This document shows positions 85-63,854 of a stretch of DNA of 64,000 nucleotides, piece by piece (within the stretch, counting starts at the first letter, position 1; the number at the start of each line of letters is the position of its first letter). The stretch comes from a virus, in IMG/VR virus record IMGVR_UViG_3300024257_000005, positions 41,678-105,677 of that record. One strand, given 5' to 3'. The notes under the pieces are model-generated. The model searched no databases. It saw nothing but the letters and a program-made list of their open reading frames with translations, and was not told where the DNA came from. The position numbers and the translations under genes are program-made.

Positions 85-1431
85 ATGACTGACGTAGCAA
101 AAAAGACTGAAACAAAAAAGAAAAAATTACTAGTTCTATCAGACGACATTCGTGTCCCATCAGGTGTGGGCACAATGACAAGACGAATCGTCTTAGACTT
201 AAAGAAAGACTTTGATATAATCCAGCTTGGTGGAGCAATAGATCATCCGAATCCTCAACCTGTATTAGTAGATGGAATAAAAGTAATCCCAGTAAAAGGG
301 TATGGCGATTCTCATATCGTTAGAAATTTAATCACAGTGGAACAACCAGACTATATGTTGATCTTTACAGATCCAAGGTACTGAATTTGGTTATGGCAGA
401 TCGAAGATGAAATCAGATCTATGGTTCCCTTAATGTATTATCATCTATGGGATGACTATCCTGCACCACAATATAATAGAGATTTTTATCTATCGAATGA
501 CTGGATGGGTTGTATCAGTAAAATTTCAAAAGCAATGGTAGAGGAAGTGGCACCAGAATTTAAAGAGAATCCATGGCGCATAGACTATATTCCTCATGGC
601 ACTCCTCACGATGAATTTAAACAGGTTGACAAATCGTCTGTTGAATATCAGAAGTTCATACGTGAATACTACAAGGGTGAATATGAAAAGTATGATTTTA
701 TAATTTTTTATAACAATCGTAATGTAAGAAGAAAAATGATGGGTGATGTTATGAATGCCTATGATGAATTCCTCAGTACACTACCACAGGAAAAGCAAGA
801 CAAATGTTTGCTATTAATGCACACTCATGTTTCCGACGACAATGGAACAAATCTTGCAGCACTGAAAAACGACTTATATCCAAACCACAATATTCTATTT
901 AGTGAAGCTAAAGTTCATACAAACATTTTGAATTTCATCTATAACTCAGTAGATGTCACGATCAATCTTGCCTCAAATGAAGGTTATGGAATGGCAACGG
1001 CTGAATCACTTATGGCCGGCACTCCAATCATTGCCACAATTACAGGTGGAATGCAAGATCAATTAGGCATTCCCTTTGAGAATGATTTTATGTCAGTTGA
1101 TGAATGGAAAGTATTGCAAGAGAATGGTGAGTCATTTTTGACCTCACATCATGCTGTTGGTATTATTCCAAAAACTAGAAGCCTCCAGGGATCACCTCCA
1201 ACTCCATATATCTATGATGATAGAATTAGTTGGATTGATGCTGCGCATGCTATTGAATATTGGTACAACAAGACACCAGAAGAGCGTGTTAAAGCAGGCG
1301 AATCAGGACGTCAATATTTAATCGAAAATGGTCACACAGTAACAGAAATGAACAAGCGTTTTAGGGCAGCAATTAAAGACATTGATGAAAATTGGGAACC
1401 CATTAAACGTGTAAATGTAATCGAGTGCTAA
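85..1431 (+). CDS. GT4-family glycosyltransferase (ORFs 85..384 and 421..1431 joined by TGA=Trp at 382)
   Basis: Same frame; readthrough gives FTDPRYWIWLW; C-terminal SNEGYGMATAESLMAGTPII motif. Confidence 0.85.
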
Positions 1432-1432
1432 T

Positions 1433-1948
1433 ATGGTTAAGGCAAAAACAATAAGAAGCAGAACGGATAAGGGTAGAAAAGCAAGAGCCAAGAAGATCAA
1501 GACGCTATTGGTCACGGTTCAGAAGTTTAAAGCGTTCAATGGATATCGCATGGTGTTTATGTACAATGCTAACTCGCAAGAGGGAACTGGAAAATATAGG
1601 GTTGAATTTAGATCTTCTCCTGCCGAACCTATCAATGTTGACAATTGGCTAAAATTTGCATCAGGCGATATACCTGTATTTGCAAATTGTTCATGTCCAG
1701 ATTTCAAATATAGATGAGAAACGGTTCTTCATAAGAAGGGCATGGCAAGAATAAAAACCAGTAATGGCGATATGCCGGATGTAACTAATCCGACATATAG
1801 AGCATCATATTGTAAACATATAATTGCATGTTTTGATCAAATGCAAGCATACATCAGAAGAAGAAACTTTGATGACATTGGTGAGAGATCCAGACTCAAC
1901 AAGCATCCAGATCTTGAAAAGAAAGTATTCGATAATGACGGAAAATAA
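1433..1948 (+). CDS. SWIM zinc-finger protein (TGA=Trp at 1715)
   Basis: Readthrough reunites CSCPDFKYRW with YCKH. Confidence 0.75.
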
Positions 1949-2417
1949 AGAAAAAGAACGCGAAGGTTTTCTTCCTCAAGAAGGCGAGATGGATCCAGAT
2001 GTTGTACGGTTCTTAAATGAATTTGCTATGACCTTGGACAATTCATTTAAAGAAAAAGATGAGCAGAATTTCGCCTACGCTGACTCAACTGATAAGAAGA
2101 ACTATCCTTTTGTGTATACGAAAAACTATGTGCTAACATACACAAATAAGCTCAAAGCATTCTCTGTATTTATTGTAATCACAGCTGATTCAAGAAGTGT
2201 GGCTGCCGATATTAAGAGATTGGAAAAATTCGCCCAAGCAAATGGAAGTTTTGAATTCAATATTGCTAAAGAATATGCTCTTGTTGATGTAAAAAATCAG
2301 CGTGTTCTATGGGGAGAAGCAGCTGAAAATAAGTACGGAGAGATAAGACTTCAAAGCATCATCAATGAATATAAATTAATAGATAGCATGAAAACCGGAC
2401 AATATGGCGATGCTTAA
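1935..2417 (+). CDS. hypothetical protein
   Basis: ORF overlapping previous stop. Confidence 0.6.
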   Translation: MTENKEKEREGFLPQEGEMDPDVVRFLNEFAMTLDNSFKEKDEQNFAYADSTDKKNYPFVYTKNYVLTYTNKLKAFSVFIVITADSRSVAADIKRLEKFAQANGSFEFNIAKEYALVDVKNQRVLWGEAAENKYGEIRLQSIINEYKLIDSMKTGQYGDA

Positions 2418-2428
2418 TTATTTTATTA

Positions 2429-2438
2429 TATATTTATA
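2429..2438 (+). promoter_or_regulatory. putative late promoter TATATTTATA
   Basis: Motif recurs in intergenic DNA upstream of about 10 genes. Confidence 0.55.
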
Positions 2439-4566: not shown

Positions 4567-4839
4567 ATGGAGATGACAATTGCACCAGAGTTTGAAAATA
4601 AGATAACTTGCTATGATGAGACTGAAATAATGTTCTCACTCAATGCAGATGGAGAATTGTTTATTGCTGAGAAATATAGAGCAGATCCATCTCCAGCTTC
4701 AAAACGATTTTGAGAATGTATGAAGGTAAACGGCAAAGAGTGGGCAGACTGTTTTGATGAAAATGAGGCTCTTACAGAAGAAGTGAGTAGCCTTAAGGGC
4801 ATCATTGAAGGAATGGAAGAAAAATATCTAGGAAAATAA
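4567..4839 (+). CDS. hypothetical protein (TGA=Trp at 4711)
   Basis: Fills the gap between neighbours exactly only with readthrough. Confidence 0.6.
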
Positions 4840-6014: not shown

Positions 6015-6989
6015 GTGAAAATTGCATTCCTTTCGGAAACGAAGTTAAATGGAAAATATCCGGAAAACTTTTCAAATTCAAGAACAGACGTTGCTTGGCA
6101 AACCGCTTTAGGAGCAACACATTATTGCATAACCGATCAAAAATTTCTTGGAAAAGAGATTGATATCGCAATAGTAATTCTACCAAAAAACTCAAATACT
6201 CTACAAAAAATCGACTCAACAATGTTCGACTATTTCCAACAGAGTGGAACCAAAGTCGGAGTAATGCAAGAGGGTCCAAACTGGTATTTTCAAGACTATT
6301 CAGCAGAAGATAATCTGCTATACTATAAATATTTATTACAGGCGGATTTTATTTTATGTCATAATGAGGTTGATCATGTATATTTTAAAGGGCTGGTCGG
6401 GCATAACAATGTTCATATTATGCCATCAACAATGAGAGATCCCGGTATCAAATCAATTATGCAGATCGAAAGAAAAGAAGAAGTTATGATTGGCGGAGGA
6501 TTTACAAGTTGGTACGGAGGATTTGATTCTTTCGTTGTAGCACAGAGAGCCGAGATAACTCCTGTAATGCCTTCAATGGGTAGGCGTCAGGAAAATGAAG
6601 AGCTTTGGGGGATAAATCATCTCCCTTATATGGACTGGACACAATGGATCATGGAGCTCAATCATTACAAATATGCAATACACCTGATGAGAACTTTTGC
6701 AGCTGGTACATTTGCTATGAATTGTGCAGCACTTGGAGTTCCATGTATTGGATATAAAGATCTTGATACTCAAAGAAATCTACATCCAGCACTGTCTATT
6801 GACATTGGAGATCTTGGTAAGGCTGCAAAGCTATTAAAACAGTTAAAAACTGACAAAGGTTTCTATGATGAATGTAGTAGATTAGCAAAGGTAAATTTTA
6901 TCAATTCAAACTATAATGAACCAAATTATAGAAATTATATGACTAGATTATTTTATGAGATATTGGAGGAAGAAGATGGAACAATATAG
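6015..6989 (+). CDS. putative GT-B glycosyltransferase
   Basis: AGTFAMNCAALGVPCIG motif; GT cluster context. Confidence 0.65.
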   Translation: MKIAFLSETKLNGKYPENFSNSRTDVAWQTALGATHYCITDQKFLGKEIDIAIVILPKNSNTLQKIDSTMFDYFQQSGTKVGVMQEGPNWYFQDYSAEDNLLYYKYLLQADFILCHNEVDHVYFKGLVGHNNVHIMPSTMRDPGIKSIMQIERKEEVMIGGGFTSWYGGFDSFVVAQRAEITPVMPSMGRRQENEELWGINHLPYMDWTQWIMELNHYKYAIHLMRTFAAGTFAMNCAALGVPCIGYKDLDTQRNLHPALSIDIGDLGKAAKLLKQLKTDKGFYDECSRLAKVNFINSNYNEPNYRNYMTRLFYEILEEEDGTI

Positions 6990-7209
6990 AGAAACAACAT
7001 TTAATTCATGAATCGAATATAAATTATTTATGGAATCAATATCTGTAGGAACTATTGAAAGCGAACAATTATACCATGGACCATTCCCAGATAAAAAAGG
7101 TGTCTATATTGTTCCAGCAACATGTAGTGCATATTTTGCTGAATTTGATGGTGAAAAATGGATTGACTCTAGTACAAATAGACCTATAGGATTTTATTAT
7201 AAAGGATAA
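6976..7209 (+). CDS. hypothetical protein (TGA=Trp at 7009)
   Basis: SD GGAGG; fills the gap only with readthrough. Confidence 0.55.
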
Positions 7210-11589: not shown

Positions 11590-12138
11590 ATGTGCGATAT
11601 AATGATAGTTGATGACGATAAGAGCATCCACACACTACTAGAATTACAATTGAAAAAGACTAATCTATGTGGTGGAAATTGTGAACTAGCACATGCATAT
11701 TCTGCAGAAGAAGCAATTGAATTAGTAGGGAAACTAGATCACAGACCTTTCATATTCTTTGTTGATATAAATTTACCACAGAAATCTGGACCAGAATTTG
11801 TGAAATGGTTACATGAAAAAGAAGTATTTGCATTAATATTTATAGTCACAGGATCAGATGTGACTCCAATTGAATTTGAAAAACTGATCACAGCTGGAGT
11901 TGATGGATATTTTAGAAAGCCGATTAATCAGAACTTATTAAAAACGATTGTTGGTATGACTTTAACGAAAGCCACTAAATTGGGTAGAAAACATGCTCGA
12001 ATGTTTCACGAAACCGTAGGGATGAAATTTGACAATTCTGTCCTTGACAACATTATTGAAAAATCAAAACATTTGAACATCTTATATGAAGAATTTCATT
12101 CAAGTAGACAAGGAGTTAGAGAAGATGCCACTATCTAA
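11590..12138 (+). CDS. response regulator receiver domain protein
   Basis: IMIVDDD, VDINLP, VTG, RKP. Confidence 0.85.
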   Translation: MCDIMIVDDDKSIHTLLELQLKKTNLCGGNCELAHAYSAEEAIELVGKLDHRPFIFFVDINLPQKSGPEFVKWLHEKEVFALIFIVTGSDVTPIEFEKLITAGVDGYFRKPINQNLLKTIVGMTLTKATKLGRKHARMFHETVGMKFDNSVLDNIIEKSKHLNILYEEFHSSRQGVREDATI

Positions 12139-12637
12139 AGAAGCTAGAAAAGAAGTGCAGGACATGATGGCATATGCCCTGTCTGATGCCGGTGAACAAA
12201 ATAGCAAATTTATAGAAGTTATTACAAACTATGCCACAACAAATCAGAATATACTGCATGCCATTGAAGAGAGCAATCGACAAATGGGTGAAATTAGTGG
12301 CAATGTAGCAGAAACAGCTAAAGCATTGAACAATGGATTATCAACTAAGATCGGTAATATTGACGCAAATGTTGCCATACTACATGACGATCACCATGCA
12401 GAAACTGGAGCAATTCCCGTATTAAAAGAAGAAATAAGAGATATGAAAAAGACAATGAAATCAATGTGAATTCCTTTGATTAGTGTTCTAATGACAACTC
12501 TTCTATTAGCTGGGTCAATAATTAGAACAGAAACGCCAGATACAATAGATCACCCAATAACAATTGAGCAGGTTGAAGATGCATATGAAAAAGGTGTGAT
12601 AGATGGTCACAATTTGGAGATATTAAATGATGAGTAA
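12125..12637 (+). CDS. coiled-coil membrane protein (TGA=Trp at 12467), possibly lysis-related
   Basis: Readthrough adds TM helix WIPLISVLMTTLLLAGSII and overlaps the next start. Confidence 0.6.
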
Positions 12638-13892: not shown

Positions 13893-14264
13893 ATGGGAAC
13901 CGAAAAATCAGATAAAAAGCAGTGAAGCGATCTTGAAATTGTAGAAATGCTCGAAGAAAAATTCCCAGGAATGACTGGCGAATTTAAAGATATTCTTAAA
14001 GAGCAGTATCTTACATTTTGTCTAAAGCAATGGGATTACGGTCCCTCAAATATTGCTGTCGGAACCAACCTTGAAACACCTGAAGAGGTGAAGATGTCAT
14101 GGATGGGATTGTGGTTCAGGATTAATGATAAGGTTCAGCGGCTCAAGAATATTCTATTCAACGATAAGACGGCAGCAAATGAACCAATGATTGATGCATT
14201 TATGGATATGTCAGTCTATGGAATAATAGCACAAATTGTCGATAGGGGCAAGTGGGGTAAATAG
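13893..14264 (+). CDS. DUF1599/Nmad1-like nucleotide-modification-associated protein (TGA=Trp at 13923)
   Basis: KQWDYGPSNI, RINDKVQRL, DMSVYG; upstream in-frame ATG. Confidence 0.7.
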
Positions 14265-23422: not shown

Positions 23423-23496
23423 GCTGGATTAGCTCAAGTGGGTAGAGCCGGGGTTTTGTAAACCTCAGGTTGCAGGTTCGAGGCCTGTGTCCAGCG
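23423..23496 (+). tRNA. tRNA-Thr(TGT)
   Basis: Cloverleaf; loop TTTGTAA. Confidence 0.9.
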
Positions 23497-23549
23497 CAGA
23501 TGTTTTTTGACAAATTTTTTATTAATGGGTTCTACTCCCATCCAAGAAT

Positions 23550-23633
23550 GCCTCGGTGGCGGAATTGGTAGACGCGCTGGTCTTAGGCACCAGTCCCCGA
23601 AAGGGGGTGCAAGTTCGAGTCTTGTTCGGGGTA
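23550..23633 (+). tRNA. tRNA-Leu(TAG)
   Basis: Class II cloverleaf; loop CTTAGGC. Confidence 0.92.
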
Positions 23634-23881
23634 CATAATTTAATTTCATTTAGTTGTTTCATTTGACTACACTGGGGTTAGATTAATAAGGTAAAAAGTT
23701 ATTTGACAATAAGGGCAATGAAGAAAAAGATAAAGTAAATGGGATGACACGGATTAACACATACACCCTCAAACAGGACACCCAAGTGGTACACCCTAAA
23801 GTAGGACATGCTTCCCCGTGCTCAAATACTTTTGATATAAAGAAGTGCTCCCTAGATCATTGGAATTTAGGGAGTTTATAT

Positions 23882-23956
23882 TCCGCCATAGCTCAGTCAG
23901 GTTAGAGCGCCGGATTGTTAATCCGGATGTCCTTGGTTCGAATCCAAGTGGCGGAG
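23882..23956 (+). tRNA. tRNA-Asn(GTT)
   Basis: Loop TTGTTAA. Confidence 0.93.
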
Positions 23957-24091
23957 CATTGCAACAAAAACGTGGGCAACGGGTCGTAGTGTGTAGGTTG
24001 AGGATACTCATCATATGGAACTAGCTTATTGTGTCCGTGGGGTGCCATCTTGTTCTGCAGGACAATGTTGGAATCAACCTCAAAACTTTAA

Positions 24092-24166
24092 GCCTCGCTA
24101 GCTCAATTGGCTCAGAGCAGTGGCCCTTTAAGCCATTGGTTCCAGGTTCGAGTCCTGGGCGGGGTA
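24092..24166 (+). tRNA. tRNA-Lys(TTT) with C33
   Basis: Loop CCTTTAA. Confidence 0.88.
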
Positions 24167-24187
24167 CAAAACGAAACTTAAAAATGA

Positions 24188-24268
24188 GTTGAGTAGACAC
24201 CCTATGGGCCATATTGGATAAGAGGTCATTAGACAGCGCTACCAAAGGTTCGAATCCTTCGCTCAATG
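24188..24268 (+). ncRNA. tRNA-like RNA (acceptor stem and T-arm, non-canonical body)
   Basis: GTTGAGT/GCTCAAT stem; AAGGTTCGAATCCTT. Confidence 0.55.
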
Positions 24269-24344
24269 TTGAAGATTTAAGTGGAAACTATTTGAACCAA
24301 TATATCAATTGGCCAAACGATATATTCAAATAGGGTAGAATTAT

Positions 24345-24419
24345 CGAGGTGTGGCGCAGTCCGGTTAGCGCACTTGCTTTGGGAGCAAGGGGTCGTAGGT
24401 TCGAATCCTACTACCTCGA
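24345..24419 (+). tRNA. tRNA-Pro(TGG)
   Basis: Loop TTTGGGA. Confidence 0.93.
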
Positions 24420-24505
24420 CGAGTTGAGCTGCCAGTCCAGATTACGGAGGCTATTCCAATGACGGTTCGTCCGATGAAAGAAATAGCAACATGGCATTTT
24501 TAAAA

Positions 24506-24577
24506 CCTGAGGAAGTCTAATGGTAGAGGCTGGGCCCAGGAAGTCTGGTATAGCAAGTTCGATTCTTGTCTTTGGGA
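24506..24577 (+). tRNA. degenerate tRNA, apparent AGG anticodon (Pro?)
   Basis: GU-rich acceptor and anticodon stems; T-arm GCAAGTTCGATTCTTGT. Confidence 0.45.
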
Positions 24578-24582
24578 CAAAC

Positions 24583-24656
24583 GTGGCATTAGTGTAATGG
24601 TAACATTCCAGATTTCCAATCTGGGGTTGCGGGTTCGAGTCCTGTATGCCACACCA
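24583..24656 (+). tRNA. tRNA-Gly(TCC)
   Basis: Loop TTTCCAA; encoded CCA. Confidence 0.92.
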
Positions 24657-24676
24657 ATAAAAAGAAAGGTTATATT

Positions 24677-25054
24677 ATGATCAAGGAACTTTATGAAGTA
24701 AGAGTAAATTTCACAATGGAGCGTGATGAATTTGAAAACGCTATTGATAAGATTCGAAATTGTATGAGAATCGAATTCAAAAGAGGAATTGCTTATGTTC
24801 CTGTTCCTCAGAATGCTCAACTCATAATTACTAACATTGAAGATTATTCAACAGCAGTACATATAGAGCAAAAAATATTAAATAATGGGCCAGTGGTGAA
24901 ACTGGTAAACGCAACAGGCTTAAGCCCTGTCGACCGTAATGGTCTTGTGGGTTCGAATCCCTCCTGGTCTACTTGGTCCATTAAACTAAATGAAAGGTTA
25001 TATTATGCAAGCATGGGGACACAAAACTCTCGAACAGTTAGACAAAATGACTGA
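24677..25054 (+). CDS. hypothetical protein whose frame runs through tRNA-Leu
   Basis: SD AAAGGT; 3' end uncertain. Confidence 0.4.
   Translation: MIKELYEVRVNFTMERDEFENAIDKIRNCMRIEFKRGIAYVPVPQNAQLIITNIEDYSTAVHIEQKILNNGPVVKLVNATGLSPVDRNGLVGSNPSWSTWSIKLNERLYYASMGTQNSRTVRQND
24887..24971 (+). tRNA. tRNA-Leu(TAA)
   Basis: Loop CTTAAGC; long variable arm. Confidence 0.92.
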
Positions 25055-25265
25055 TCAAAGATTGTTAGCTTATTATAAGGCTATTAGAGTTCCACAATGG
25101 AATTATAATAGCTGGTATGAAAACGACACTGAAGAATTCATTGAAGCTCAAGAAGCTTACATAGCAAAAGTTAAGATGGTTCTTGAAGATAGAGGACATG
25201 TAAAAACTCGTGGAAGAAAAGATCCCCATGTAAATGACAATACAAAGGATCCAAAATTAAAATAG
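25005..25265 (+). CDS. hypothetical protein
   Basis: SD AAAGGT; lies between tRNAs. Confidence 0.55.
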   Translation: MQAWGHKTLEQLDKMTDQRLLAYYKAIRVPQWNYNSWYENDTEEFIEAQEAYIAKVKMVLEDRGHVKTRGRKDPHVNDNTKDPKLK

Positions 25266-25337
25266 GGCCGTAGCTCAATTGGTTAGAGCACCGGACTGTC
25301 AATCCGGAGGTTGGGGGTTCAAGTCCCCTCGGTCCTG
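25264..25337 (+). tRNA. tRNA-Asp(GTC)
   Basis: Loop CTGTCAA. Confidence 0.93.
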
Positions 25338-25339
25338 CT

Positions 25340-25426
25340 GTGCATGTGGCAGATAGGTAATGCGCCTGGCCGTGGCCCAGGTTGGATAATATCCTCATGC
25401 GGGTTCAAATCCCGTCGTGCACCCCA
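25340..25426 (+). tRNA. tRNA-His(GTG) with long variable arm
   Basis: Loop CCGTGGC; C73; encoded CCA. Confidence 0.75.
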
Positions 25427-25509
25427 CCCAGTAATGTCATCCAGGCATTGACACCGGATTGTAATCCCGGTTCCTAATGGAGTTGTAGGTTCGAGTCCTT
25501 CTACTGGGA
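25427..25509 (+). tRNA. tRNA-Tyr(GTA), long variable arm, C1:G72
   Basis: Loop TTGTAAT. Confidence 0.75.
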
Positions 25510-25530
25510 CAAATTTAAAATGGAGAATAT

Positions 25531-26160
25531 ATGACTGAAAATTTAGCATTTAAAGATGGCAAGTGGACTGAAAAATGGTTTGATCAGAATATTGAAGCAT
25601 GGACTGAAGCAATCGATGGCTATAAAAAATATGAAGGTGATATTAAATCGGTTCTTGAAATTGGATGCTTTGAAGGTCGAGCAACTGTCTGGCTATGCAA
25701 TACTGTACCAACAATTGAAAAATATACAGTTATTGATACATTCAAAGGAAGCTTAGAAGAAAAAGGTATGGAACGAGCAAAAGATAATTTGACAAAAAAT
25801 GAAAGTCATATCAGATCAAATTTTGAACATAATATTTCTAAATTCAGAGACAAAATTGATTTCACAATAGTTGAAGGTGAATCACAGAGTATGCTGCATG
25901 ATATTAAAGGAAAATATGATTTCATATATATTGATGGAAGTCATAGATCTGATGATGTTTTTATAGATGCATACTGGGCAGATAAATTATTAAATGTGAA
26001 TGGCATAATGATTTTTGATGATTTTGGATGGACAAATCCCGATAGTGAATTATTAATTGATAGCCCAGGATTTGGAATTGGAGAATTTCTTACAATTCAC
26101 ACACATGATTACAATATATTTTTAAGAGGTTATCAACTCGGAATACAAAAAACAAAATAA
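25531..26160 (+). CDS. class I SAM-dependent methyltransferase (Methyltransf_24-like)
   Basis: LEIGCFEG, YIDGSH, IFDD. Confidence 0.85.
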   Translation: MTENLAFKDGKWTEKWFDQNIEAWTEAIDGYKKYEGDIKSVLEIGCFEGRATVWLCNTVPTIEKYTVIDTFKGSLEEKGMERAKDNLTKNESHIRSNFEHNISKFRDKIDFTIVEGESQSMLHDIKGKYDFIYIDGSHRSDDVFIDAYWADKLLNVNGIMIFDDFGWTNPDSELLIDSPGFGIGEFLTIHTHDYNIFLRGYQLGIQKTK

Positions 26161-26228
26161 GGAGAATGCTATGAGCAATGGAGGAATCGGTCGATTTAGT
26201 TAGTTAAACTAAATCAAGGAGACCGAAA

Positions 26229-26561
26229 ATGAGTAAGACCCAAAGAAGAAAAAAAGGACCAATCCCACAACATGTCACTCACGACTATGTAAAAGTAGGT
26301 GTTCGAATCAAAGAACATTATTACATTTATTACTGGGAATGGTTGCCTATAAGTGAGGAAGATCAAAAAATAGCCATTGCAAAATACTATTCTGATACTG
26401 GAATTGGTAGAAAATGGCCCGTACCAAGTTGGTATGCAAAAATGCTAAACAATGATTACAGAACAAAAGCCAGACACGAAATGCAAAAAATCAACTCATG
26501 GAAAGATTGGGAAGAATATGAATTCGATCCAAAGCTTAATTGCAAAGGCTGGTACTGGTAA
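26229..26561 (+). CDS. basic, Trp-rich hypothetical protein
   Basis: SD AAGGAG lies within a hairpin. Confidence 0.65.
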   Translation: MSKTQRRKKGPIPQHVTHDYVKVGVRIKEHYYIYYWEWLPISEEDQKIAIAKYYSDTGIGRKWPVPSWYAKMLNNDYRTKARHEMQKINSWKDWEEYEFDPKLNCKGWYW

Positions 26562-26610
26562 GATTTAAATAGTTTAGAGCTGTGGTTCTATTCAAAAACC
26601 ATAGCCACAT

Positions 26611-45356: not shown

Positions 45357-46127
45357 ATGTCTGACATTGTAAAATATATCAAAGATTTTGAGAAAGAGAA
45401 ATTGCTCTACCTTGTTCTTGCAGGGTCACGAGGATATTCAACTCACACAGATGAGTCTGACTATGATTATCGTGGGGTGTTTGTGAATACTAAGGAAGAA
45501 GTAATTGGTAGCCTAACGCGAGATAAACAAAAATACTGGCCTGACACTGAAGATGCAATGCTCCATGGTTTGCAAAAATTTGTTAAGCTGGCCTCAAATG
45601 CAAGTCCTAATGTCATTGAACTTTTATTCATGAATGGTACGGCAGAATATATTCATCCCTTGTTTGCAAAATGGTTCCTTGACAATCGTGATGACTTTTT
45701 ATCTCTAAAATGCTATAATAGTTACTCAGGATATGCTTGGGGACAGGTTCAACAAAGCAAGCATAAGTCTTCTCATGGATCCTTACGTGAAAAATATAAA
45801 TGTGGAGATCCTCAAGATCCATATGATTCAAAATATGCAATGCACACAATTCGCATGATGTATAATGGATTAGAAATTATTCAGACTGGGATGTTAACTC
45901 CAAATTTCAAGGATAGCGGCCTTCTTACCGTTTTACAAGAGATTCGGAAAGGTGATTTCTATAAAAATGCTACTGAATTTTATCAGCATGTAGAAAGCCT
46001 TGATGCTGACATTAAAAAATCACATGAGCATGCTTCAATTGGAAAGTGGCTTCGTGAAGAACCAAGTCGGGATCGGATGAATGAATTACTAATTGGATTC
46101 TATGAAGAACTTTGGTATTCAAAATGA
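45357..46127 (+). CDS. Pol-beta nucleotidyltransferase (RlaP-like); extends to 46136 if the terminal TGA is Trp
   Basis: GSRGYST..SDYDYRGVF; NVIELLF; KYAMHTIR. Confidence 0.8.
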   Translation: MSDIVKYIKDFEKEKLLYLVLAGSRGYSTHTDESDYDYRGVFVNTKEEVIGSLTRDKQKYWPDTEDAMLHGLQKFVKLASNASPNVIELLFMNGTAEYIHPLFAKWFLDNRDDFLSLKCYNSYSGYAWGQVQQSKHKSSHGSLREKYKCGDPQDPYDSKYAMHTIRMMYNGLEIIQTGMLTPNFKDSGLLTVLQEIRKGDFYKNATEFYQHVESLDADIKKSHEHASIGKWLREEPSRDRMNELLIGFYEELWYSK

Positions 46128-46462
46128 AATATATAATATTATTGGCATTCATTGGTTTGGTTATTGAAGCTCGATATCAAATTGAGAAAATGAAAAACAA
46201 GCCATTCAGCGATGAAAATTCTGAATATGACCAATCGATGAAGATTAATCAATATGTTGTTTTTCTAAAAGACTATCAATCGGAAGAGCAGAAGAATATG
46301 CGACAGGAGAAATATAACAAGGGTGAAGTTGTGACTGTTCGGCATATATCAACTGGAGTTGTGGGCCCAATCCAGATTGAATACTTAAATGCTATTGATT
46401 ATTCTATGATTGTTGATAATGCAGGATATACAATTATGAGAATCATACCAATTGAAAGGTAG
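46124..46462 (+). CDS. hypothetical secreted/membrane protein
   Basis: N-terminal hydrophobic segment. Confidence 0.55.
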   Translation: MKYIILLAFIGLVIEARYQIEKMKNKPFSDENSEYDQSMKINQYVVFLKDYQSEEQKNMRQEKYNKGEVVTVRHISTGVVGPIQIEYLNAIDYSMIVDNAGYTIMRIIPIER

Positions 46463-47864: not shown

Positions 47865-48671
47865 ATGAACACTACTCAAAGAGTGGGCACTCAGCCCGAA
47901 GCACACATTTCAATTGACAAAAACAGATTACAAAGATTCCGTGGAAAAGTATATCTTTCTGACAAAGCCAAGTTTGAGATTGAACTATTCAATCCAACTC
48001 AGCGCCGTTATGGAGTCAAATTTCTATTCAATGGGGAATACATGTCTAATCGACATTTGATCATAGACCCAGGCCAACGTATTTTTCTGGACAGGTTTAT
48101 TGAAACAAAGAAACGATTTGAATTTAACACATATGAAGTGGATGATTCACCAGCTGCAAAAGCAGCAATCAGTAAGAATGGATTAATAGAGGTAGAATTT
48201 CATCAAGAAAACGATCCTATTCCTCTATTGAATAACACAACCAACTGGCCAGCACAGTTTACATATACTGGAGATTGGTTTGGATTTCACGGCAATACAT
48301 TTGATCAGTACAATACGACAATAAGCAACAGTGGTGGAATATCAGAAAATACTACTGTAAATTATTGCAGCACCAATCTCAATCAGAGTCCAAAGAAGAA
48401 CGCTAGACATAAGCTGATGAGATCAATGGCAGCACCAGAGCCAATTGAGACAGGAAGGATTAATAAGTCGAATGAAAATTCTAATCAAGAATTTCAAAGT
48501 GTTGAGGCTGATTTTAACTGGATTGTAGATACAAAGGTTGTTTTGCAATTACTTCCAATTAGTCTTCAACCAGCCAATCAAAGAGACTTGGTGCAGTATT
48601 GTCCTGTTGATGGCACTAAATTCAAAAAGGGATATAATTTCTGTCCCAAATGTGGAAAGGCTAAAGATTGA
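47865..48671 (+). CDS. hypothetical protein with C-terminal zinc ribbon; extends to 48677 if the terminal TGA is Trp
   Basis: SD AAGGAG; CPVDG..FCPKCG. Confidence 0.7.
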   Translation: MNTTQRVGTQPEAHISIDKNRLQRFRGKVYLSDKAKFEIELFNPTQRRYGVKFLFNGEYMSNRHLIIDPGQRIFLDRFIETKKRFEFNTYEVDDSPAAKAAISKNGLIEVEFHQENDPIPLLNNTTNWPAQFTYTGDWFGFHGNTFDQYNTTISNSGGISENTTVNYCSTNLNQSPKKNARHKLMRSMAAPEPIETGRINKSNENSNQEFQSVEADFNWIVDTKVVLQLLPISLQPANQRDLVQYCPVDGTKFKKGYNFCPKCGKAKD

Positions 48672-48925
48672 AAATAATCGAATTCAAAGGCACTAAGTAT
48701 AGAGTGCTACATAAGATACCTGCCGATCGTGTCACTGATTCTATCGTTAAAGGGATCCAACATGATCAGCGGATATTTTCGAAACAAACAAATGAAGAAT
48801 GGTTTCTGGAAGAAATTGAAGAGGCAGAGTTTAGTCCCATTAAAGCTAAATCTACAAAGAAGAAACGGACGCCCTCGATTATACTTCCAGCACACCCAGG
48901 TCAGACGATCGACATAAAGGCCTAA
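48668..48925 (+). CDS. hypothetical protein
   Basis: TTG start overlapping previous gene. Confidence 0.5.
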   Translation: MKIIEFKGTKYRVLHKIPADRVTDSIVKGIQHDQRIFSKQTNEEWFLEEIEEAEFSPIKAKSTKKKRTPSIILPAHPGQTIDIKA

Positions 48926-52678: not shown

Positions 52679-52688
52679 TATATTTATT
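52679..52688 (+). promoter_or_regulatory. putative late promoter
   Basis: TATATTTATT after terminator, heading the structural operon. Confidence 0.6.
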
Positions 52689-55155: not shown

Positions 55156-55590
55156 ATGCCAGTTTTATATAACTATACAGGATCAGATTCTGAAACAGTA
55201 TTAATTACTGAAGAAAACATTGGGCTTGACTATCCATTTGGATTGACTGGTGCACCGTTTGGAGCTACTACAACTTCGCTTGATAGAATTAGAGCAAACA
55301 TTCGAATACTATTAAGAACAAATGTGGGTGAGAGACCAATGAAGCCTACATTTGGCGTACGATTAAAAGAGTTTATATTTGAACAAGTTGATGATGAAGA
55401 CGAACAAAGAATTAAAGACAATATTGCAACAGCTGTTGAGATATGAATACCAGAGGTAACTCTAGATTCTATAGCTCTTGATCAATCTGCAAGCGAAAAA
55501 GAGCTTCAAATACTAGGTGTTCAGATAAAATTTCACCTTAAAGATAATATAGATGTTACCGCAGAAGAGATTGTGGTATTAACATCATAG
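55156..55590 (+). CDS. baseplate wedge gp25-like protein (TGA=Trp at 55444)
   Basis: GERPMKPTFG; readthrough gives EIWIPEV. Confidence 0.85.
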
Positions 55591-55600: not shown

Positions 55601-57502
55601 ATGGCAACGCCAGTAAAGAAAAATGTAAATTATATTGGAAGAGATTTCTCTGGTTTACGGGAAAACATTTATACATTCATTAAGTCGTACTTTGGGAACA
55701 CATACAAAGACTTCACAGATTCATCTCCAGGTGAAATGCTTATGGAAATACCTGCATACGTTGGAGATGTTCTATCGTTCTATCAAGATAGCATGTTTAA
55801 TGAGCTATTTGATCCTAAGCAACGGAAGAATGTATTGGCACGAGCTAAGCTATTTGGATATAAAAGTACAGCTGCCATAAGTTCTATTACAGATGAAGAT
55901 GTGTTTATCGTTGTTCCTGCAACTGGATCGACTGGAGCAAAGACTCCTGATCTCAGATACTGTCCAGTAATTAGTGCAGGTCTGCAAATTTCAACAAAGA
56001 GTCCGGCCCACATATTTGAAACTCAAGAGGATATTAATTTTGCAATAATTGATACTGAGCTTGATAGCAACAATGTAGAGGTAGTTATATTTGCCGTTGA
56101 TGGCTCTGACATTCCTACTCATTTTTTAATTAGAAAAACAGTTCGTGTATTGTCTGGCGAAACAAAAACTATGACCCAGACTGTCACATCACCACAAAAA
56201 TATTTAAAAATACAGCTACCTTCAAAAACAGTTTCTGAAGTTATCTCAATTACAGATTCAGAAGGTAATAAATGGTATCAGGTCGACTCATTGGCACAGG
56301 ATACAGTATTCGTTGAGCAACAAAATACATCAGCCAATGATCCAGAATTGAGTGCGTATAGCGGTTCAGTTCCATATTTATTGAAATTGAAAAAAGTTCC
56401 TAAGAGATTTGAAACAGAGGTTGATGAAAATAACCTCACATATGTTCTATTTGGATCTGGAGTTCTTACGTCTAATGATGAAGAGATTATCCCAAATCCA
56501 AATAATGTTGGTACTCCATTTGCAAACGTTGATAATAAATATGACTATGCAATCGATCCTGAAAATTTCTTAAAGACGACTACATTCGGTGAAGCTCCAG
56601 CAAATACAGTTTTAACAATAAGCTATAGAGACGGCGGAGGTCTAGCTACGAATGTCCCGGCAAAAGCTATTACAGAAGTTGGAAATGCTACATGAACATT
56701 TTCAGTAACCGAATCAACACTGGACAGTCTTGCTCTCTCAGATGTAAAAAATTCGATTAGAGCATCAAACCCAGGAAAATCAACAGGTGGCAGAACCGAG
56801 GAAGACATCAATAGTATTGCATTTAATGCCAAGGCAAACCTCAATGCTCAGAAGAGATGTGTAATCAAAGAGGATTATATTGTAAGATCATATTTACTAC
56901 CGGCCAAGTTTGGATCGATTGCAAAAGTATATGTGGAAAAGGATGACCTAACAAGATCTGTGGGATCGGATGATATTAATCCTGCACTAGGAATTGTTCC
57001 AAGCCATGCAAATCCACTGGCAATCAATTTATTTTCATTGAGTTATGATTCGAATAAGAATCTTCAAGCATGTTCATATGCTCTCAAAAAGAACTTGAAG
57101 ACATATCTATCACAATACAGGCTTCTTACAGATACTGTTAATATTGTTGATGGGACTATTGTAAACTTTAAAGTCTTATTTGAGATCATCGTTGATCCTC
57201 ATGAGAATAAGCGAGCCATTTTGATCAATTGTGTAGACGCACTAAAGACATTTTTTAACATTGACAATTGAAGCTTCAATCAGCCAATCGTATACTCTAA
57301 AGTATATCAAGTGTTGAATGATGTAGCCGGTGTTCAATCGGTGCCAAATGTTGATATTATTAATGTTAGCGGAGGAACACATTCATCAAAATCAGTAGAT
57401 TTTCCAGCAATGACACAAAAAGGCATTATATATCCGATTAGAGATGTAAGTATTTTTGAATTAAAATACCCAAATCAAGATATCATCGGTAGTGCAAGCT
57501 AA
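55601..57502 (+). CDS. baseplate wedge gp6/J-like protein (TGA=Trp at 56693, 57269)
   Basis: RDFSGLRE, YVGDVLSFY, AQKRCV, IDNWSFNQPI; three supplied ORFs in one frame. Confidence 0.85.
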
Positions 57503-57516: not shown

Positions 57517-58527
57517 ATGTATAAAAAATTCACAGCCAATAAAGACTCTTTTATTGACAAAAAGTTGGGCGAAAATAATTTCGGGAAGGATGAGCTACTT
57601 GAGGTAGGCAGGATTATTAGCAGTAGTGCTGTATATCCTAAGCGTTCTTTAATTTCATTTGACATTAGTGTGATTTCAGCATCTTTTGCTGCCGGATCAA
57701 TTAACTCAGGAAGCAATTTCGAACTATTAGTACATTCAAATCAAGGTTCGACAATGTTACAAGATGCATTCTATATTGATGCGTACATACTGTCATCCTC
57801 TTGACAAGAGGGAACTGGTTCTGTATCAGATAATAATGCATCAGGTTCTGTATCATGGATTTCATCATCAACAGCAGCATGAGTGACAACAGGATCAGAT
57901 TATTTGGCATCGCCCACGGCTTCACAATATTTTCCAACCTCATCAGGAGACTTAAGCCTAGATGTTACAACAATTATTAGCCAATCAATCAATTCTGAAT
58001 ATGACAATTATGGATTTTTGATCAGGCTACGAGACGAATCTACGGTTCAGAATCAAGATCCAAAATATTTCTATTCAAAGGATTCGTTCACAATATACGA
58101 CCCAGTAATTTATGCCAAATGGAATGATGTAGCAACGACTGGCTCGGTAGCAGATTCATCGGCATCTGTTGAGTATGTAGTTACATTAAAAAATAAACAA
58201 GAAGTATATTCAATACAAGAGCAAGTATATTGCGAGCTTCATACAAGATTACAAGATCCAACACTGACATTTGATACAAGTGTAGGATCGCTATCATCAA
58301 TTCCTTTGACAAATCTGGCTTATACAATTATAGACACTGCTACAAAAGAGACTGTAATTCCATTTAGTGCATACACAAGTTGCAGCTATGATAGTTCAAA
58401 AAATTATTTTAATATTGACATGGATGTATTACAGCCTAATCGAGCATATAGTTTAAAATTACAACATTCGCTTGCATCAAATGTTAAAAAATTCTACCAT
58501 GTTCACTCATTTAGAACCACGGAGTAA
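57517..58527 (+). CDS. virion structural protein, DNRLRE-like (TGA=Trp at 57802, 57880)
   Basis: NFGKDELLEV, SSWQEGTG, NYGFLIR. Confidence 0.75.
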
Positions 58528-58529: not shown

Positions 58530-59849
58530 ATGAATAAAATCCTTATTAATAGATCGACTGTAAATACTCAGACAGTTAGAGCTCAGACTCAGGCCTTAGA
58601 TAGTGAAGCGCTCAAAAAATCAATTATCAAAAAAGCCAAACTTGATATTAGTGAACTAGTATCAAAAGATCCCATATTACCAAACAGTGGTACAGGTGGT
58701 AGAGCTCATGATGAAATTATAGCAGATCTATATGCCGAGTTTGAGGCAGATTTTGGCGAAATGTCAAATGAAGAATTAGTAGACTTTTCTACACGAGTGA
58801 GATTAGAAATTGACACAATTGTAGAAAATGAAAGACTTGTTAAGAATAAGGGATTATTCATCGATACAGATCAGATATGTATGATCACAGGTAAGCAACC
58901 GTTTGCTGGAACTTCTTCTCCCCACAAGATCAGATTCCCAAACATATACAAAACCGTTGGCTCATATAATTTAGATCAGAATATTTTTACACTCCACTGA
59001 ATGCCAACGCTGAGACCAAATAGCACATTGAGCATTGTTAGGCATAAAGTTTTACATACTCCAGGGTATATGGGATGAGATCTTGAATTGTTATCAAATA
59101 TGAGATATAGATTTAATGCATGGATATGGGATAGAGACGATCAGAAAACTGAAATTATGTCTGTTACTTCTGATGCTAATCAACTTGTACAGCTAAATGA
59201 GTGAAATCATGTTACATTTGGATTTGACATAGGTGGCATTGTTATTCGCGTAGAAGACACTGTCAATACTCAAGCTTATTCAAAGAGCATAGATCTATTC
59301 TATGGAATTAGATGAGATTTCTTAAGCGTGTGAGACTTTGATGCTCCACTGGGACCAACAGGATATAGCGAAGAAGGTCCTATCTTAGGAGATCTATATT
59401 GAGTCTATCCTCAGCTTATTTTTGGTGGAATTAACGTGAGCGATAATACTTCCGATATTGGTCGGTTGAGAAACTCATATACGACAGATGAAAGATCTAT
59501 AGAGCCTCAACATCAAGTCATTGAACTAAATTCTGCACAAAGCCGATCAATTAAAAACGGATTAGATTCATATTACATTATAGCATTTAGAAGCTATATT
59601 GGTGTTCCATCAATAGAGGCTGCTGAAGATAGATTTGTTGACGACCTAAGTGAGAATAATTCATTAAGCATTGCAAGCGTACTAGATGTTCGCTTTGATA
59701 AAATACAAAATGGATCAATTAGAGATTATAGTGAAAGATCTAATCTAGTTGTTCTAACTGGTGACATGAAAATTAACATAGCTGCAGATCAACTAATCAT
59801 TGCTGGCACGAAGAAGCCAAGTCTTGTTAGCATAGAAGGACCCTTTTAA
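58530..59849 (+). CDS. virion protein with LamG-like segment (six TGA=Trp)
   Basis: No TAA/TAG in frame; LNEWNHVTF. Confidence 0.7.
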
Positions 59850-59851: not shown

Positions 59852-62800
59852 ATGATAAATCCAAACACTGAAAATACATATGGAGTTGTTCCTGACGTAG
59901 AAGATGCTTCAACAGGAGGAACTGCAGAAGTATATATTACAGTATTTAAGCTAGATGGAACGTTTGTATCTTCGAGAATCTTGCAGCCTGATGAATATAT
60001 CTATTCTACTGGGGGTACTGGACTAGATATTAATCTAAATCTGCACATGTCTAGATATCTAAGCGTTGAGCTGCCTACTGATAACTATGATATTAAAATT
60101 TCATTTGAAAAAGAGATCAATAGTAATATTTTCATTAAAGACGTCTCACCATCAAAGACGGAAATGCGTGTCGGTCTATCGGTCGAGGAAGATACTCAGT
60201 GAGACTATTGGCTTAATTTTCCAGATAGTTTTTTAGCATCATTTGACAAGTTTGTCACTGCTAATGGCGAACACTTTAGAATCATCAATGTAACACCTGA
60301 CTATTCTAAAGTTATTGAAATGCAAGGACCTATTGAGGAAAATATTTCTAATACTGAAGAATTAATTAGCTCTAAGCAGGCCCAAGTAAGTGGAGCGGCC
60401 AACATGCCTGCTGATATTGTTTTAGAATTTGTATCATCTATAGAAAATCTACAAACAAGCTTGGCACAGTATCAGGTAGATCTTAATAACATCATGCAAT
60501 ATGCTACGATGATTGTTAAATTAGAAAATCCTTATAAAGGACCGACCGAAGTTCCAATCAATAATTCTCACATCTATACAGAGCAATATGTTTCAGTATC
60601 ATATCAAAATGTATATGTCTATTTTGAAGAACATGGACAGGGAGCAACAATTGAATTAACCGACAGATCTACTAGAAATGATAGTACAGGAAATACAAAT
60701 TGGTTCAACTATGAAGAGCTAGTGCTCAATGACAGTGGTTCGTTTGAACAAAACATATCATCATCAAAAGTATCTGGTGTTAAAAACCTAAACATCGACT
60801 ATGAGGCTTTCCAAAATCATACATACTTTGGTCTGGCACAAGATAAGTTCGTCAATGCCTACACAAAGATTAGAGATATTGAGGCATACAATGAAATCAT
60901 CCAGACATTTCCTACATCTTCTGATGCACTTGTGACAAGTCAAAGCTATTCGGATAAAATCACTGAAATCAAGAATGATTTTACTCAGTATGAAAGATAT
61001 ATGTATGAAAAATCAGGTAGCTATGCTTGACCAAAATTTTCATCCGGTACTTCATCTATAAACTATTCATACTCATCATCACAGGTTCAAACATGGTACG
61101 GAATACAAGAGCTATCTGGATCTGTATTTGATAAAAACAACAAGTATTCGTTGATTAAAAATATTCCAGAAGTTATTGCTCTAGAAGATTCGGAGAGATA
61201 CTTAAGATCTCTATTAGGATCATGAGGGGATTTCTTTGATTATATTAAATCATACATAGAGCAGTTCCAATACTTGTTCACATTTGACTATGACAAGATT
61301 AATTCAGTTCCAGATGAAATTCTACATCTATACTCTTCAGTATTTAATATAGAATTATTCTCTGGATATGACGATGTAAGAGCTTCATCATATCTTCATG
61401 GTTCTAATCAAGCATCTGGATCGGCAGCTTTACGAGATGTCACACGAGAAAAATGGATTCGCTTATTCTCTTCAATGCCATACTTGAATAAAATTCGTGG
61501 AACAAGAAGATCAATTGATGCCATTTTAAACATCTATGGAATTCCTAGATCAATACTCACAATTAGAGAATTTGGAGGAAGCAAAACTTCTGGATCAGAT
61601 TATGTTGATGAAGATGTCAACACTTATGCATTAAATTTCTGGGGTGGTGAAAGCATTGAGGTTCAAAATGCAAACTATAGCCAGCTATCTGGATCTGACT
61701 TTACAATTGAAATGAGATATGCAACAACATCCTCTGGCGACCTACCGCTATTTGGAAATACTGGATTTAATGTAACACTTGAAGACAATGGAGATGCTGA
61801 TGACTATGGATCTATAGTTTGTAACATCTCTGGATCGCCTACAATTTGAAATGCTAGTGGATCAGATGCTGTGCCATACTTCAATGGTGATTGGTTCAAT
61901 ATTATTCTTAGAAGATCTGGCTCTGAATTAACTCTTAAGACAAAATACTTTAAAGAGGATCAAATGTTCTACGATCTTTCTGGCTCGGCAACACTTAGTG
62001 CCGTATCTCAATCTTATTTGGATGCCGGTGTTTATGCTGGTAATGTTTTATTCTTTGGTGCTACCGGATCTGTTGGAGCATACTCTGGTGCAATGCAAGA
62101 GGTAAGATTGTGGAGCTCATCATTAAGCGAACCTGCATTAACTCAGCATGCTTATGATTTTAGATCTGTAGCAATGATAAATCCTTTTGACATTGATGAC
62201 AATCTTGTAGCACACTACAAACTAAATGATAATGTGACCGGATCGACAGCCAATGACTATTCATATCCACCAGTTATTGATGTGACACTAAATGGATTTA
62301 CTGGAAATCAATATAGCAATTTCACAAAATCTACAAAAACTAATTTGAACTATTTTATGACTAGCAAATATTCGTCAAATCAAATCAATATTGGGCACAC
62401 ATCTGAATCTCAGACTGAAAATACAAATGTGATTGATATTATTTTCTCACCAGTCAAGGCAATCAATGAAGATATCATAAGCGATTTTGCCATGTATGAC
62501 TTTAACGATGCCATTGGAGATCCATCTGATATGTATAATGAAAAATATCTAGATCTAGAATCGTGACGTGAGTTTTATTTTAAGAAGCTACCTAATAATT
62601 ATGATTTCTATGCTTATATGAGATTTATTAGAAATTTTGATCAAAGCATTATGAAAATTGTAGAGACGGTAGTTCCAATGAGAGCAAAATTGTGAAGTGG
62701 AATTTTAATAGAGCAGCCTATTCTAGAAAGAACAAAATATAGATGGGAAAAGAGTTCTGTTGCAACAAATCATAATTCAAGTTCATTTGATGTCACGACT

Positions 62801-63115
62801 GTCACAATATTATCTGAATCAATTGCAAACAATACATCACAGAGCATTGATATTACAACAACATTCCCAATTACGGGATCTGACAGATCTATGATGTCTG
62901 CCTCGGTAATTTATGAGGTAACTGGATCGCAACTAGGATCAAATAGTTTCTATTCATCGGCAGATAGCACCGTATCTAGCTCTCAATATTTAACTGTATT
63001 TGAATTATTGTCAAATGCAACATATAAAGGCACTCAGAACACAGATGCCACCAATTATGATGGAGCTGTGGTACAAGTTAGCCAAAGTTCGGGTGCAATC
63101 ATTAGAGTCAAATAA
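59852..63115 (+). CDS. large baseplate/tail protein, 1087 aa (six TGA=Trp)
   Basis: Five supplied ORFs in one frame; SYAWPK, RGTRRSI..YGIP..IREFGG, EVRLW. Confidence 0.8.
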
Positions 63116-63130
63116 TTTTTGTAAAAAATA

Positions 63131-63140
63131 TATATTTATT
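63131..63140 (+). promoter_or_regulatory. putative late promoter
   Basis: TATATTTATT. Confidence 0.55.
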
Positions 63141-63173
63141 ATTATATGTAGAAACACACAAAGGAGATTTATA

Positions 63174-63854
63174 ATGGGTATTTTAGATTCAAGCACAACA
63201 ACAATCGATTGTGTATTAACCAAAAAGGGAAGAGAATTGCTTTCAAAGGGCGAGTCGGAATTTAAGATTACGAAGTTTGCCGTAAGCGATGAGGGTGTTG
63301 ATTATCGAATGTATAATACAAATCATCCTTCTGGCTCAACTTCTTATGGGACTGAAATTACTTCAATGCCCGTCTTAGAGGCTCCCGTTGATGAAACACT
63401 TTCTATGAAATGAAAATTAGTAACGTTTCCAAAAGGTACTTCAAAAATGCCTATTGTTGCCGTTACACCAACTGTATTATCACTAAACTTCAATCAAAAG
63501 TCTGTTGTTACTCCATCAACAACATCTTATATTGCTGGTTTTGATAATAGCACACTAGGCTACACTTGCATCCTGTCAAATTCAGATTTGGCTACATTAG
63601 AGGTTCAAGAAGTAGCAGCAGATCAAACTTCAATTGGAACATCGCCATCTTGGATGGATGATGCATCATTGCAGAAATCTACAATCCGTGTTGGTAAAAC
63701 ATTTAGAGTGATTGCTAAAGATGTGACAGCATTGCAGGTTGCAAATAGAGTTGGCACGATTACAGTAATTGCAAATGAGACAGGTGGACAAGCAGAGCTT
63801 AATGTAACAATTGTTCCTCCAACTGGATCAATTTACACAACACCTGGCGTATAG
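63174..63854 (+). CDS. virion structural protein (TGA at 63411)
   Basis: SD AAGGAG; LTKKGRELL..ITKFAVSDE..MKWKLVT. Confidence 0.8.

Follow-up and report, generated by a model that had tools for sequence, protein, structure and literature searches.

How are virion genes read that carry TGA codons in the middle of their frames, while the replication genes of the same phage are almost free of them? This question is raised by the right-hand 64 kb of the linear, 105,677-bp IMG/VR virus record IMGVR_UViG_3300024257_000005 (positions 41678-105677; this stretch of 64,000 nucleotides is called the window here). The sequence-only reading of the window had proposed that TGA is recoded as tryptophan (Trp), mainly in late genes, that the host uses the standard code and that the phage switches code in mid-infection, so that TGA locks the virion genes until late. 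We show here that TGA is recoded, that its meaning is Trp, that it is distributed unevenly over gene classes and that its use is linked to promoter class. We consider it likely that TGA is Trp in genes behind late promoters, that early and replication genes keep to the standard code and that UGA is decoded late in infection. The Trp meaning, the bias towards virion genes and the near-disuse of TGA as terminator thus stood; the host code, the switch in mid-infection and the lock we only infer.

The PHROG and Pfam matches identify the virus as a T4-like jumbo myophage. Its record is estimated to be about 50% complete, and all negative results for the whole record cover the approximately 105 kb at hand. 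Nearly all genes are carried by the plus strand. The left 12 kb of the record contain gp15-like, tail sheath, baseplate hub and neck genes. A replication block follows at record 12.6-41.5 kb, with a DnaE-type polymerase, DnaB, ribonucleotide reductase (RNR), UvsX, SSB, an exonuclease and an NAD ligase. The window holds glycosyltransferase and epimerase genes, RNA ligases, polynucleotide kinase (PNK), a nucleotidyltransferase, GroEL, 27 tRNAs and a transfer-messenger RNA (tmRNA), and its last 9 kb contain the gp25-like and gp6-like baseplate wedge genes.

In-frame TGA codons and their reading as tryptophan

All 27 TGA codons that had been listed were found in frame, inside long plus-strand frames free of TAA and TAG. 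Eighteen of them lie in the six plus-strand genes of 55156-63854, for which the earlier hand count of 18 TGA and 14 TGG codons was exact. The gp25-like baseplate wedge gene (55156..55590; PHROG 43/261) has one TGA (55444) and no TGG. It is followed by the gp6-like wedge gene (55601..57502; PHROG 219) with TGA at 56693 and 57269 and one TGG, and by a further gene of the baseplate cluster (57517..58527) with TGA at 57802 and 57880 and two TGG. The virion-cluster gene at 58530..59849 (439 amino acids) has six TGA (58998, 59076, 59202, 59313, 59331, 59400) and two TGG. Its neighbor at 59852..63115 (1087 amino acids) has six TGA (60200, 61028, 61223, 61847, 62564, 62693) and eight TGG. Under code 4, in which TGA means Trp, this gene is open over 1087 codons, and such a frame with six TGA but neither TAA nor TAG cannot be due to chance. 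The last gene (63174..63854; 226 amino acids) has one TGA (63411).

The sites outside the baseplate cluster are 382, 1715, 4711, 7009, 12467 and 13923, as well as 27945, 27957 and 28056. Upstream of the window, 18 further TGA codons were found in neck, sheath and hub genes (record 268-12326). Recoding is sparse, with about 45 sites per 105 kb. All genes concerned in the window lie on the plus strand. In the glycosyltransferase gene (85..1431), TGA 382 corresponds to residue 100, inside a single PHROG 2170 match (residues 17-328); a PDB alignment of the protein ends three residues short of the TGA column. TGA 1715 is residue 95 of a 171-residue product (1433..1948), inside a PHROG 18980 match (residues 82-133). 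The coding score is unbroken across TGA 4711 in a 90-codon gene (4567..4839) for which no homologue was found. A 77-codon gene (6976..7209; TGA 7009), likewise with no homologue found, and a 170-codon gene (12125..12637; TGA 12467, no TGG) are gene calls under code 4. The putative zinc-finger/PD-(D/E)xK-like nuclease gene (27540..28217) has TGA at three of three Trp codons (27945, 27957, 28056). Doubtful is the 123-codon gene at 13893..14264. A good ribosome-binding site (RBS) precedes 13893, and TGA 13923 is codon 11; the family match starts only at residue 28, and the nearest promoter is of early type.

Gene calling under different codes gave a consistent result. Coverage of the plus strand by open reading frames (ORFs) of at least 100 amino acids rose from 81% (code 11) to 89% (code 4). 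With greedy coverage of both strands, the values were 86.2% and 90.5%, and only 86.5% under code 15. The gain under code 4 was found at the two structural ends (from 87 to 96% and from 83 to 92%), while the replication block changed from 96.5 to 97.0%. Fragments were fused by code 4 into full, tightly packed genes.

As a control for errors, the stretch 44001-64000 was compared with independent contigs of four runs, two of DNA (2018 and 2019) and two of RNA (2025). The contigs differed from it at a few dozen listed positions, none of them one of the 18 TGA sites. Single contigs also reach from the TGA-free into the TGA-rich genes, as at 49458-61731 (DNA) and 52715-62837 (RNA). Read errors and chimeras can therefore be excluded as the source of these codons.

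The meaning of TGA was determined by alignment to 34 related IMG/VR loci (30-52% identical to the phage in the gp6-like and sheath proteins), which covered 20 TGA columns. None of the 34 loci had an internal TGA in the aligned genes, and these relatives therefore use the standard code. At the TGA columns the relatives had TGG in 79 of 177 cells (45%), and the remainder was mostly Tyr, Leu, Ile, Val and Phe. The phage's own TGG columns were TGG in 144 of 247 relative cells (58%), compared to a Trp background of 0.9%. Closer relatives, including P0004 (85%), P0005 (76%) and P0002 (68%), were compared as proteins. In the protein collection, the phage's own genes are present as code-11 fragments as well as in full length, as called under code 4.

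Several single columns are almost invariant. Column 57269 was TGG in 23 of 23 IMG/VR loci and Trp in 15 of 16 closer proteins (85% to 43% identity). Column 57802 was TGG in 18 of 18 relatives and column 57880 in 14 of 18. At 56693, the 85%-identical relative had Trp and most others Tyr, Phe or Leu. In the nuclease, columns 27945, 27957 and 28056 were Trp in 25, 11 and 18 of 25 homologues, respectively. The 439-residue protein was aligned with a 49%-identical relative (P0125), which has Trp at five of the six TGA columns and Tyr at one. In the 1087-residue protein, column 61028 was TGG in 7 of 10 and Tyr in 3 of 10, and the remaining TGA columns were aliphatic or variable. At column 55444 the relatives show Tyr, Asn, Trp or Phe, and at 63411 four show Tyr and one Ser. 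The TGA columns thus showed no prevalence of Gly or of random residues, and the homologue columns (45% TGG against the 0.9% background) support the reading of TGA as Trp. Code 25, in which TGA would be Gly, was rejected. Gly was the commonest residue at one of 20 columns, and this one came from three near-identical loci.

Gene classes, promoters and gene ends

Structural genes of the record contain 36 TGA and 50 TGG codons. The glycosyltransferase cluster (85-14264) has 6 TGA and 68 TGG, and all other genes together have 5 TGA (three in the nuclease) and 302 TGG. The split between structural and other genes is highly significant (Fisher P = 6e-22). TGA and TGG are thus not used uniformly across gene classes, and the proposed concentration in virion genes and absence from replication and enzyme genes was confirmed (36/50 versus 5/302 TGA/TGG). 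TGA-bearing genes for sheath, gp15, hub and the gp25- and gp6-like wedge proteins stand in contrast to those for DnaE, DnaB, RNR, UvsX, SSB and ligase. The claim that the genes at 14-55 kb have no internal TGA holds except for the nuclease at 27540-28217, which had been listed, and for TGA 46125 and 48669, which adjoin a terminal TAA.

General codon preference was compared over the same classes. In the codon pairs for Lys, Glu, Gln, Leu and Arg, 62-93% of the codons end in A, with no difference between gene classes. The A-ending share of Trp codons is 42% in structural genes, 8% in the glycosyltransferase cluster and 2% in the others. Thus TGA appears to be a nearly free synonym of TGG in late genes and forbidden in early genes. 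More finely divided, the TGA share is 56% in the baseplate cluster, 33% from neck to hub and 8% in the glycosyltransferase cluster, and it falls to about 0% for early genes. The value in the baseplate cluster comes close to that of the Lys, Glu, Gln and Leu pairs, in which 62-74% of the codons end in A. The base following TGA (+4) was G in 22, A in 18, C in 4 and T in 3 cases, so that T is mildly scarce, and no clear readthrough context emerged from these counts.

At the left end of the record, the border between recoded and unrecoded genes is sharp and has no intergenic gap. It lies at a 584-codon gene of no known family (record 12611-14365) with 12 TGG and no TGA. Upstream of it are a TGA-free gene of 93 codons (record 12328-12609) and, before this, a 452-codon gene with three TGA and five TGG.

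TGA use follows the promoter class. A late-type motif, TATATTTAT, occurs in the record 18 times on the plus and three times on the minus strand, and 16 of the 18 plus-strand copies are intergenic. In the window all nine matches are on the plus strand and intergenic, where 2.1 were expected, and none of 100 shuffles reached nine. The motif precedes the sheath, tube and hub genes and, at 52679..52687 (plus strand), heads the operon extending into the baseplate genes. The gene at 63174 has a copy of its own (63131-63139). Further copies lie upstream of the glycosyltransferase operons, at 27513 ahead of the nuclease gene and at 23019 ahead of the tRNA array. For the glycosyltransferase gene at 85..1431 the motif lies 144 nt upstream of the window start; for the genes at 4567..4839 and 12125..12637 it lies upstream at 2429 and 10337. 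In the structural loci of relatives (35-52%), TATATTTAT was found 41 times on the plus and 11 times on the minus strand, 20-40 nt before structural genes. We therefore take the motif for a late-type promoter that is conserved in this group of phages. The T4 late promoter TATAAATA was rejected as the late motif of this phage, as it showed no strand bias and no link to genes. A late sigma factor named in the sequence-only reading could not be confirmed; the PHROG and Pfam searches of the genes scanned gave no match to one.

The early-type motif, GTTTCA-N17-TATATT, is sigma70-like and has a start codon about 25 nt further on. Behind it we found only TGA-free genes, with the exception of the doubtful site 13923. 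Conversely, all TGA-bearing genes except 13893-14264 have the late-type motif upstream and no early-type motif in between. Virion genes of T4-like phages are expressed late. Late timing of the TGA-bearing genes would thus follow from promoter class and this established late expression. Upstream of the tRNA array, promoters of either type are present (window 23019-23290), namely TATATTTAT at 23019 and a sigma70-like motif at 23261.

Of the genes called under code 4, 114 terminate with TAA, 33 with TAG and none with TGA, in agreement with the earlier statement that nearly all genes end in TAA or TAG. As terminator, TGA would account for at most three of 147 genes, each of them backed by TAA. These three TGA codons lie one to three codons before the terminal TAA, at record 16205 (ORF 15809-16219) and at window 46125 and 48669. 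The nucleotidyltransferase gene (45357..46136, plus strand) has an early-type promoter; its TGA 46125 is probably the terminator, with TAA two codons on. In the 270-codon gene at 47865..48677 (plus strand), a single codon separates TGA 48669 from the terminal TAA. Only 2% of early-gene codons fall among the last four of a gene, and in only 16% of genes does another TAA or TAG lie at so short a distance. The simplest view of these three TGA codons is therefore that they are genuine stops, each backed by a second one. TGA followed by a backup TAA looks like an arrangement suited to genes that need a correct end under both codes.

Decoding of UGA and competing explanations

We propose that TGA serves as a Trp codon in neck, sheath, hub and baseplate genes transcribed from the conserved late-type promoter. 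It is also used in the nuclease gene that adjoins the tRNA-Trp gene and, more sparsely, in the glycosyltransferase cluster. Early and replication genes have no sense TGA, so that they would be readable under the standard code of the host. A standard-code host is suggested by these TGA-free early genes, by the TAA-backed TGA ends and by the standard-code relatives. Late in infection, UGA would have to be decoded efficiently as Trp. The decoding agent may be a tRNA(UCA), perhaps together with release-factor interference, encoded in the remaining half of the genome. Alternatively, it may be the phage's own tRNA-Trp(CCA) with an A9C-type change.

Some results weigh against this reading. Neither ARAGORN nor Rfam, at normal and relaxed settings, detected a tRNA with anticodon UCA in the 105 kb. 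A loop scan likewise revealed no UCA anticodon hairpin in a tRNA-like context, nor a two-armed UCA/CCA suppressor tRNA. Also absent from the 105 kb were proteins with an RF-1 domain (release factors) and Trp-tRNA synthetase (TrpRS) or any class Ib synthetase. The standard-code host is an inference, and the host search, made with the 5' part of the tmRNA and with the tag of an abundant related tmRNA from the same runs, gave no match to either among 185,579 species genomes. The genes of the abundant sheath and tube proteins have 1 TGA to 11 TGG, versus 35 to 39 in the remaining structural genes (P = 0.012), which suggests that UGA decoding is not fully equal to that of UGG and that UGA is read somewhat less well. 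A mid-gene TGA was found in the small replication-block ORF at record 15809-16219, and TGA 13923 sits behind an early-type promoter. Expression timing is drawn from gene function and promoter motifs.

Two relaxed or intron-allowing ARAGORN calls of tRNA(UCA) were spurious. One contains an 'intron' of 1076 nt, and the other is the antisense of tRNA-Ser(UGA), the hairpin of which recurs in the UCA loop scan. The tRNA array itself (23423..33179, plus strand; ARAGORN, Rfam) comprises 27 genes and serves all 20 amino acids. Two of the tRNAs are unusually long, namely His(GUG) with 87 nt (window 25340-25426) and Val(UAC) with 89 nt (28338-28426), the variable region of which contains an insertion. 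In addition, window 24506-24577 holds a degenerate tRNA-like element, Pro(AGG), with 23 bits.

The candidate for near-cognate reading of UGA in this array is tRNA-Trp(CCA) at 28203..28275 (plus strand), and the last 15 nt of the nuclease ORF overlap its gene. It has U8-C9, a D-stem of G10-C25, G11-C24, U12-A23 and U13-A22, and a normal anticodon stem of 5 bp. In E. coli tRNA-Trp, A9C is reported to enable UGA readthrough, as is the Hirsh mutation G24A (review, PMC13092985). The phage tRNA resembles these laboratory opal suppressors in its CCA anticodon with C9 next to U12-A23. It differs in that it is a natural phage gene and lacks G24A (G11-C24), and suppression is here a candidate function. 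C9 is rare and was found in only two of the 27 phage tRNAs (Trp and Ser-GCT). Among sampled IMG/VR tRNA-Trp(CCA) genes, 4 of 72 had C9, and the 17 with U12-A23 had A9 in 16 cases, U9 in one and C9 in none. Five related IMG/VR records contained no comparable tRNA-Trp. C9 was rejected as a general marker of recoding, as two IMG/VR phages with a C9 tRNA-Trp and other 12-23 pairs use the standard code. The IMG/VR phages L059 (record G006, 168 kb) and L075 (record G007) carry a tRNA(CUA) together with a C9 tRNA-Trp(CCA). Their longest ORFs became no longer under code 15 or code 4, so that a suppressor tRNA seems to be retained in these phages although their genomes are not recoded throughout.

That UGA is decoded by this tRNA-Trp(CCA) as a natural A9C-type, Hirsh-like suppressor, without any UCA anticodon, is a tentative idea and, in our estimate, rather unlikely. 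It is favored by the rare combination of C9 with U12-A23, which reproduces the laboratory A9C suppressor, and by an otherwise complete array without tRNA(UCA). The gene also adjoins a late-type promoter and the nuclease gene whose Trp codons are all TGA, so that the dose of the tRNA would rise late. However, proteins with six TGA codons need near-complete decoding, and leaky reading in competition with release factor 2 (RF2) would give a negligible yield unless RF2 is disabled. A suppressor of this kind would probably act together with a block of host RF2. C9 is moreover not diagnostic, given the two standard-code phages, and this is a single candidate taken from sequence, with only about half of the genome at hand. 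Recoding could also be restricted to late genes without being a regulatory lock: as soon as UGA can be decoded late in infection, AT-biased mutation would turn TGG into TGA by drift in genes that are only translated late. This is quite possible, although we lean to the other side. The gradient of TGA share, which nears that of comparable codon pairs, fits such drift. So does the even spread of TGA along the genes (mean relative position 0.51), where a lock might favor sites near the starts, and many TGA codons are found at poorly conserved columns. On the other hand, drift leaves the origin of the system unexplained, and invariant Trp positions (27945, 57269, 57802) are TGA as well. The data cannot separate the two; the lock on virion genes is one reading, and neutral drift from TGG to TGA fits equally well.

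If TGA were already Trp (code 4) or Gly (code 25) in the host, and the phage simply followed suit, this would explain why TGA is almost unused as terminator and would make a suppressor tRNA unnecessary. We regard such a host as very improbable. Early and replication genes have zero to two sense TGA per approximately 300 Trp codons, with the other codon pairs being 62-93% A-ending. The three TGA codons that sit just before a terminal TAA, the identity of the TGA columns as Trp and not Gly, and the TGA-free aligned genes of all 34 related loci argue against it as well. Least of all can the TGA codons be attributed to assembly or sequencing errors, to pseudogenes or to a chimera of a code-4 and a standard-code phage, for which the probability is practically negligible. 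The TGA-rich genes do occupy both ends of the record, as a chimera might have it. On a circularly permuted map, however, the structural genes would be adjacent. Promoter motifs, RBS style and codon use are uniform throughout, and the contigs of the four runs are identical at the TGA sites and bridge the border. The explanation we prefer thus remains Trp-coding TGA in late-promoter genes combined with standard-code early genes. A temporal switch of code in mid-infection would presumably follow from it.

Setting of the phage and relation to known recoded phages

The same sequence was found in 14 seawater or marine DNA runs (2018-19) and in six metatranscriptomes (2025). The phage is thus recurrent in seawater and is an abundant marine T4-like phage. 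Versions of 126-128 kb exist. Among the public seawater runs there are contigs of 119-128 kb, one of which reaches 9 kb past the end of the window. Viral and metagenome contigs were scanned for an extension of the genome and for near relatives, and none were found. Cultured phages are all distant; the nearest is Microcystis phage Mel-JY01 (39% identity, sheath), followed by Flavobacterium phage immuto.

Alongside the full tRNA set and the tmRNA, the window encodes a putative RNA repair and processing set of two RNA ligases, a polynucleotide kinase, a nucleotidyltransferase and a 714-residue PHROG 33734 protein (window 20063-21091, 44078-45064, 45357-46136, 46468-47568 and 33451-35595). The tmRNA is phage-encoded (window 49441-49798; Rfam 120.8 bits) and has the tag GTNYAIAA. 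In the four runs, a far commoner contig was approximately 96% identical to it at 49454-49544 and divergent beyond, and its tag would continue YPVAA. This contig represents a related tmRNA, of the host or of another phage, in the same water. Inside the replication block, record 24091-24720 encodes a ClpP-like protease, possibly a head maturation protease, with no TGA and one TGG.

TGA-to-Trp (code 4) phages are known from the gut, for example the approximately 127-kb 'Agate' and 'Jade' clades (Borges et al., bioRxiv 10.1101/2021.08.26.457843). As here, these have in-frame Trp-TGA codons, in their case in structural and lysis genes, with replication genes in standard code. Depletion of TGA as terminator, standard-code relatives and an inferred standard-code host are likewise shared. 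In contrast to the gut phages, the present phage was found in seawater, and it belongs to the T4-like myophages and encodes a DnaE polymerase, 27 tRNAs and a tmRNA. Its recoding is sparse, and the available half of its genome has no tRNA(UCA), RF1 or TrpRS. A suppressor tRNA was found in only 35% of code-4 phages by Borges et al. (bioRxiv 10.1101/2021.08.26.457843) and in only 15% in another study (PMC11210395).

The reassignment of TAG to Gln (code 15) in crAss-like and Lak phages has been validated by metaproteomics (PMC9523058). It is also biased to late genes and occurs with standard-code hosts. There, however, codon and amino acid are different and a tRNA(CUA) is usually carried, and the present case is known from sequence alone. 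Phages of Mycoplasma and Spiroplasma share code 4 with their hosts (PMC11210395). TGA likewise means Trp in them, but genome-wide, whereas the present phage keeps it out of its early and replication genes. In the literature search, made in a limited library, no report of TGA read as Trp in a marine T4-like phage turned up. A late-gene switch of TGA to Trp is already known from gut phages; here it occurs in a marine T4-like lineage, with no suppressor tRNA visible in the available half of the genome.

With this phage, late-gene recoding of TGA to Trp reaches beyond the gut phages and includes a T4-like jumbo phage that is abundant in the sea. Surveys have used a gain in coding density of at least 10% as the criterion for an alternative code (PMC13037316). 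In a survey of 10,754 jumbo phages with this 10% criterion, alternative codes were found in 0-0.65% of the genomes from habitats outside rumen, pig gut and human gut. The overall gain in density is only 4 to 8 points here, and surveys that demand 10% could miss such genomes and annotate their virion genes as fragments. The full tRNA set without tRNA(UCA), together with an A9C-type tRNA-Trp, offers a concrete test case for UGA decoding in code-4 phages that lack a suppressor tRNA. Should the tRNA-Trp indeed read UGA, this would be a natural change of code in a bacterial virus by a mutation in the body of a tRNA. The suppressor would then be transcribed behind a nuclease gene that itself needs UGA to be read as Trp.

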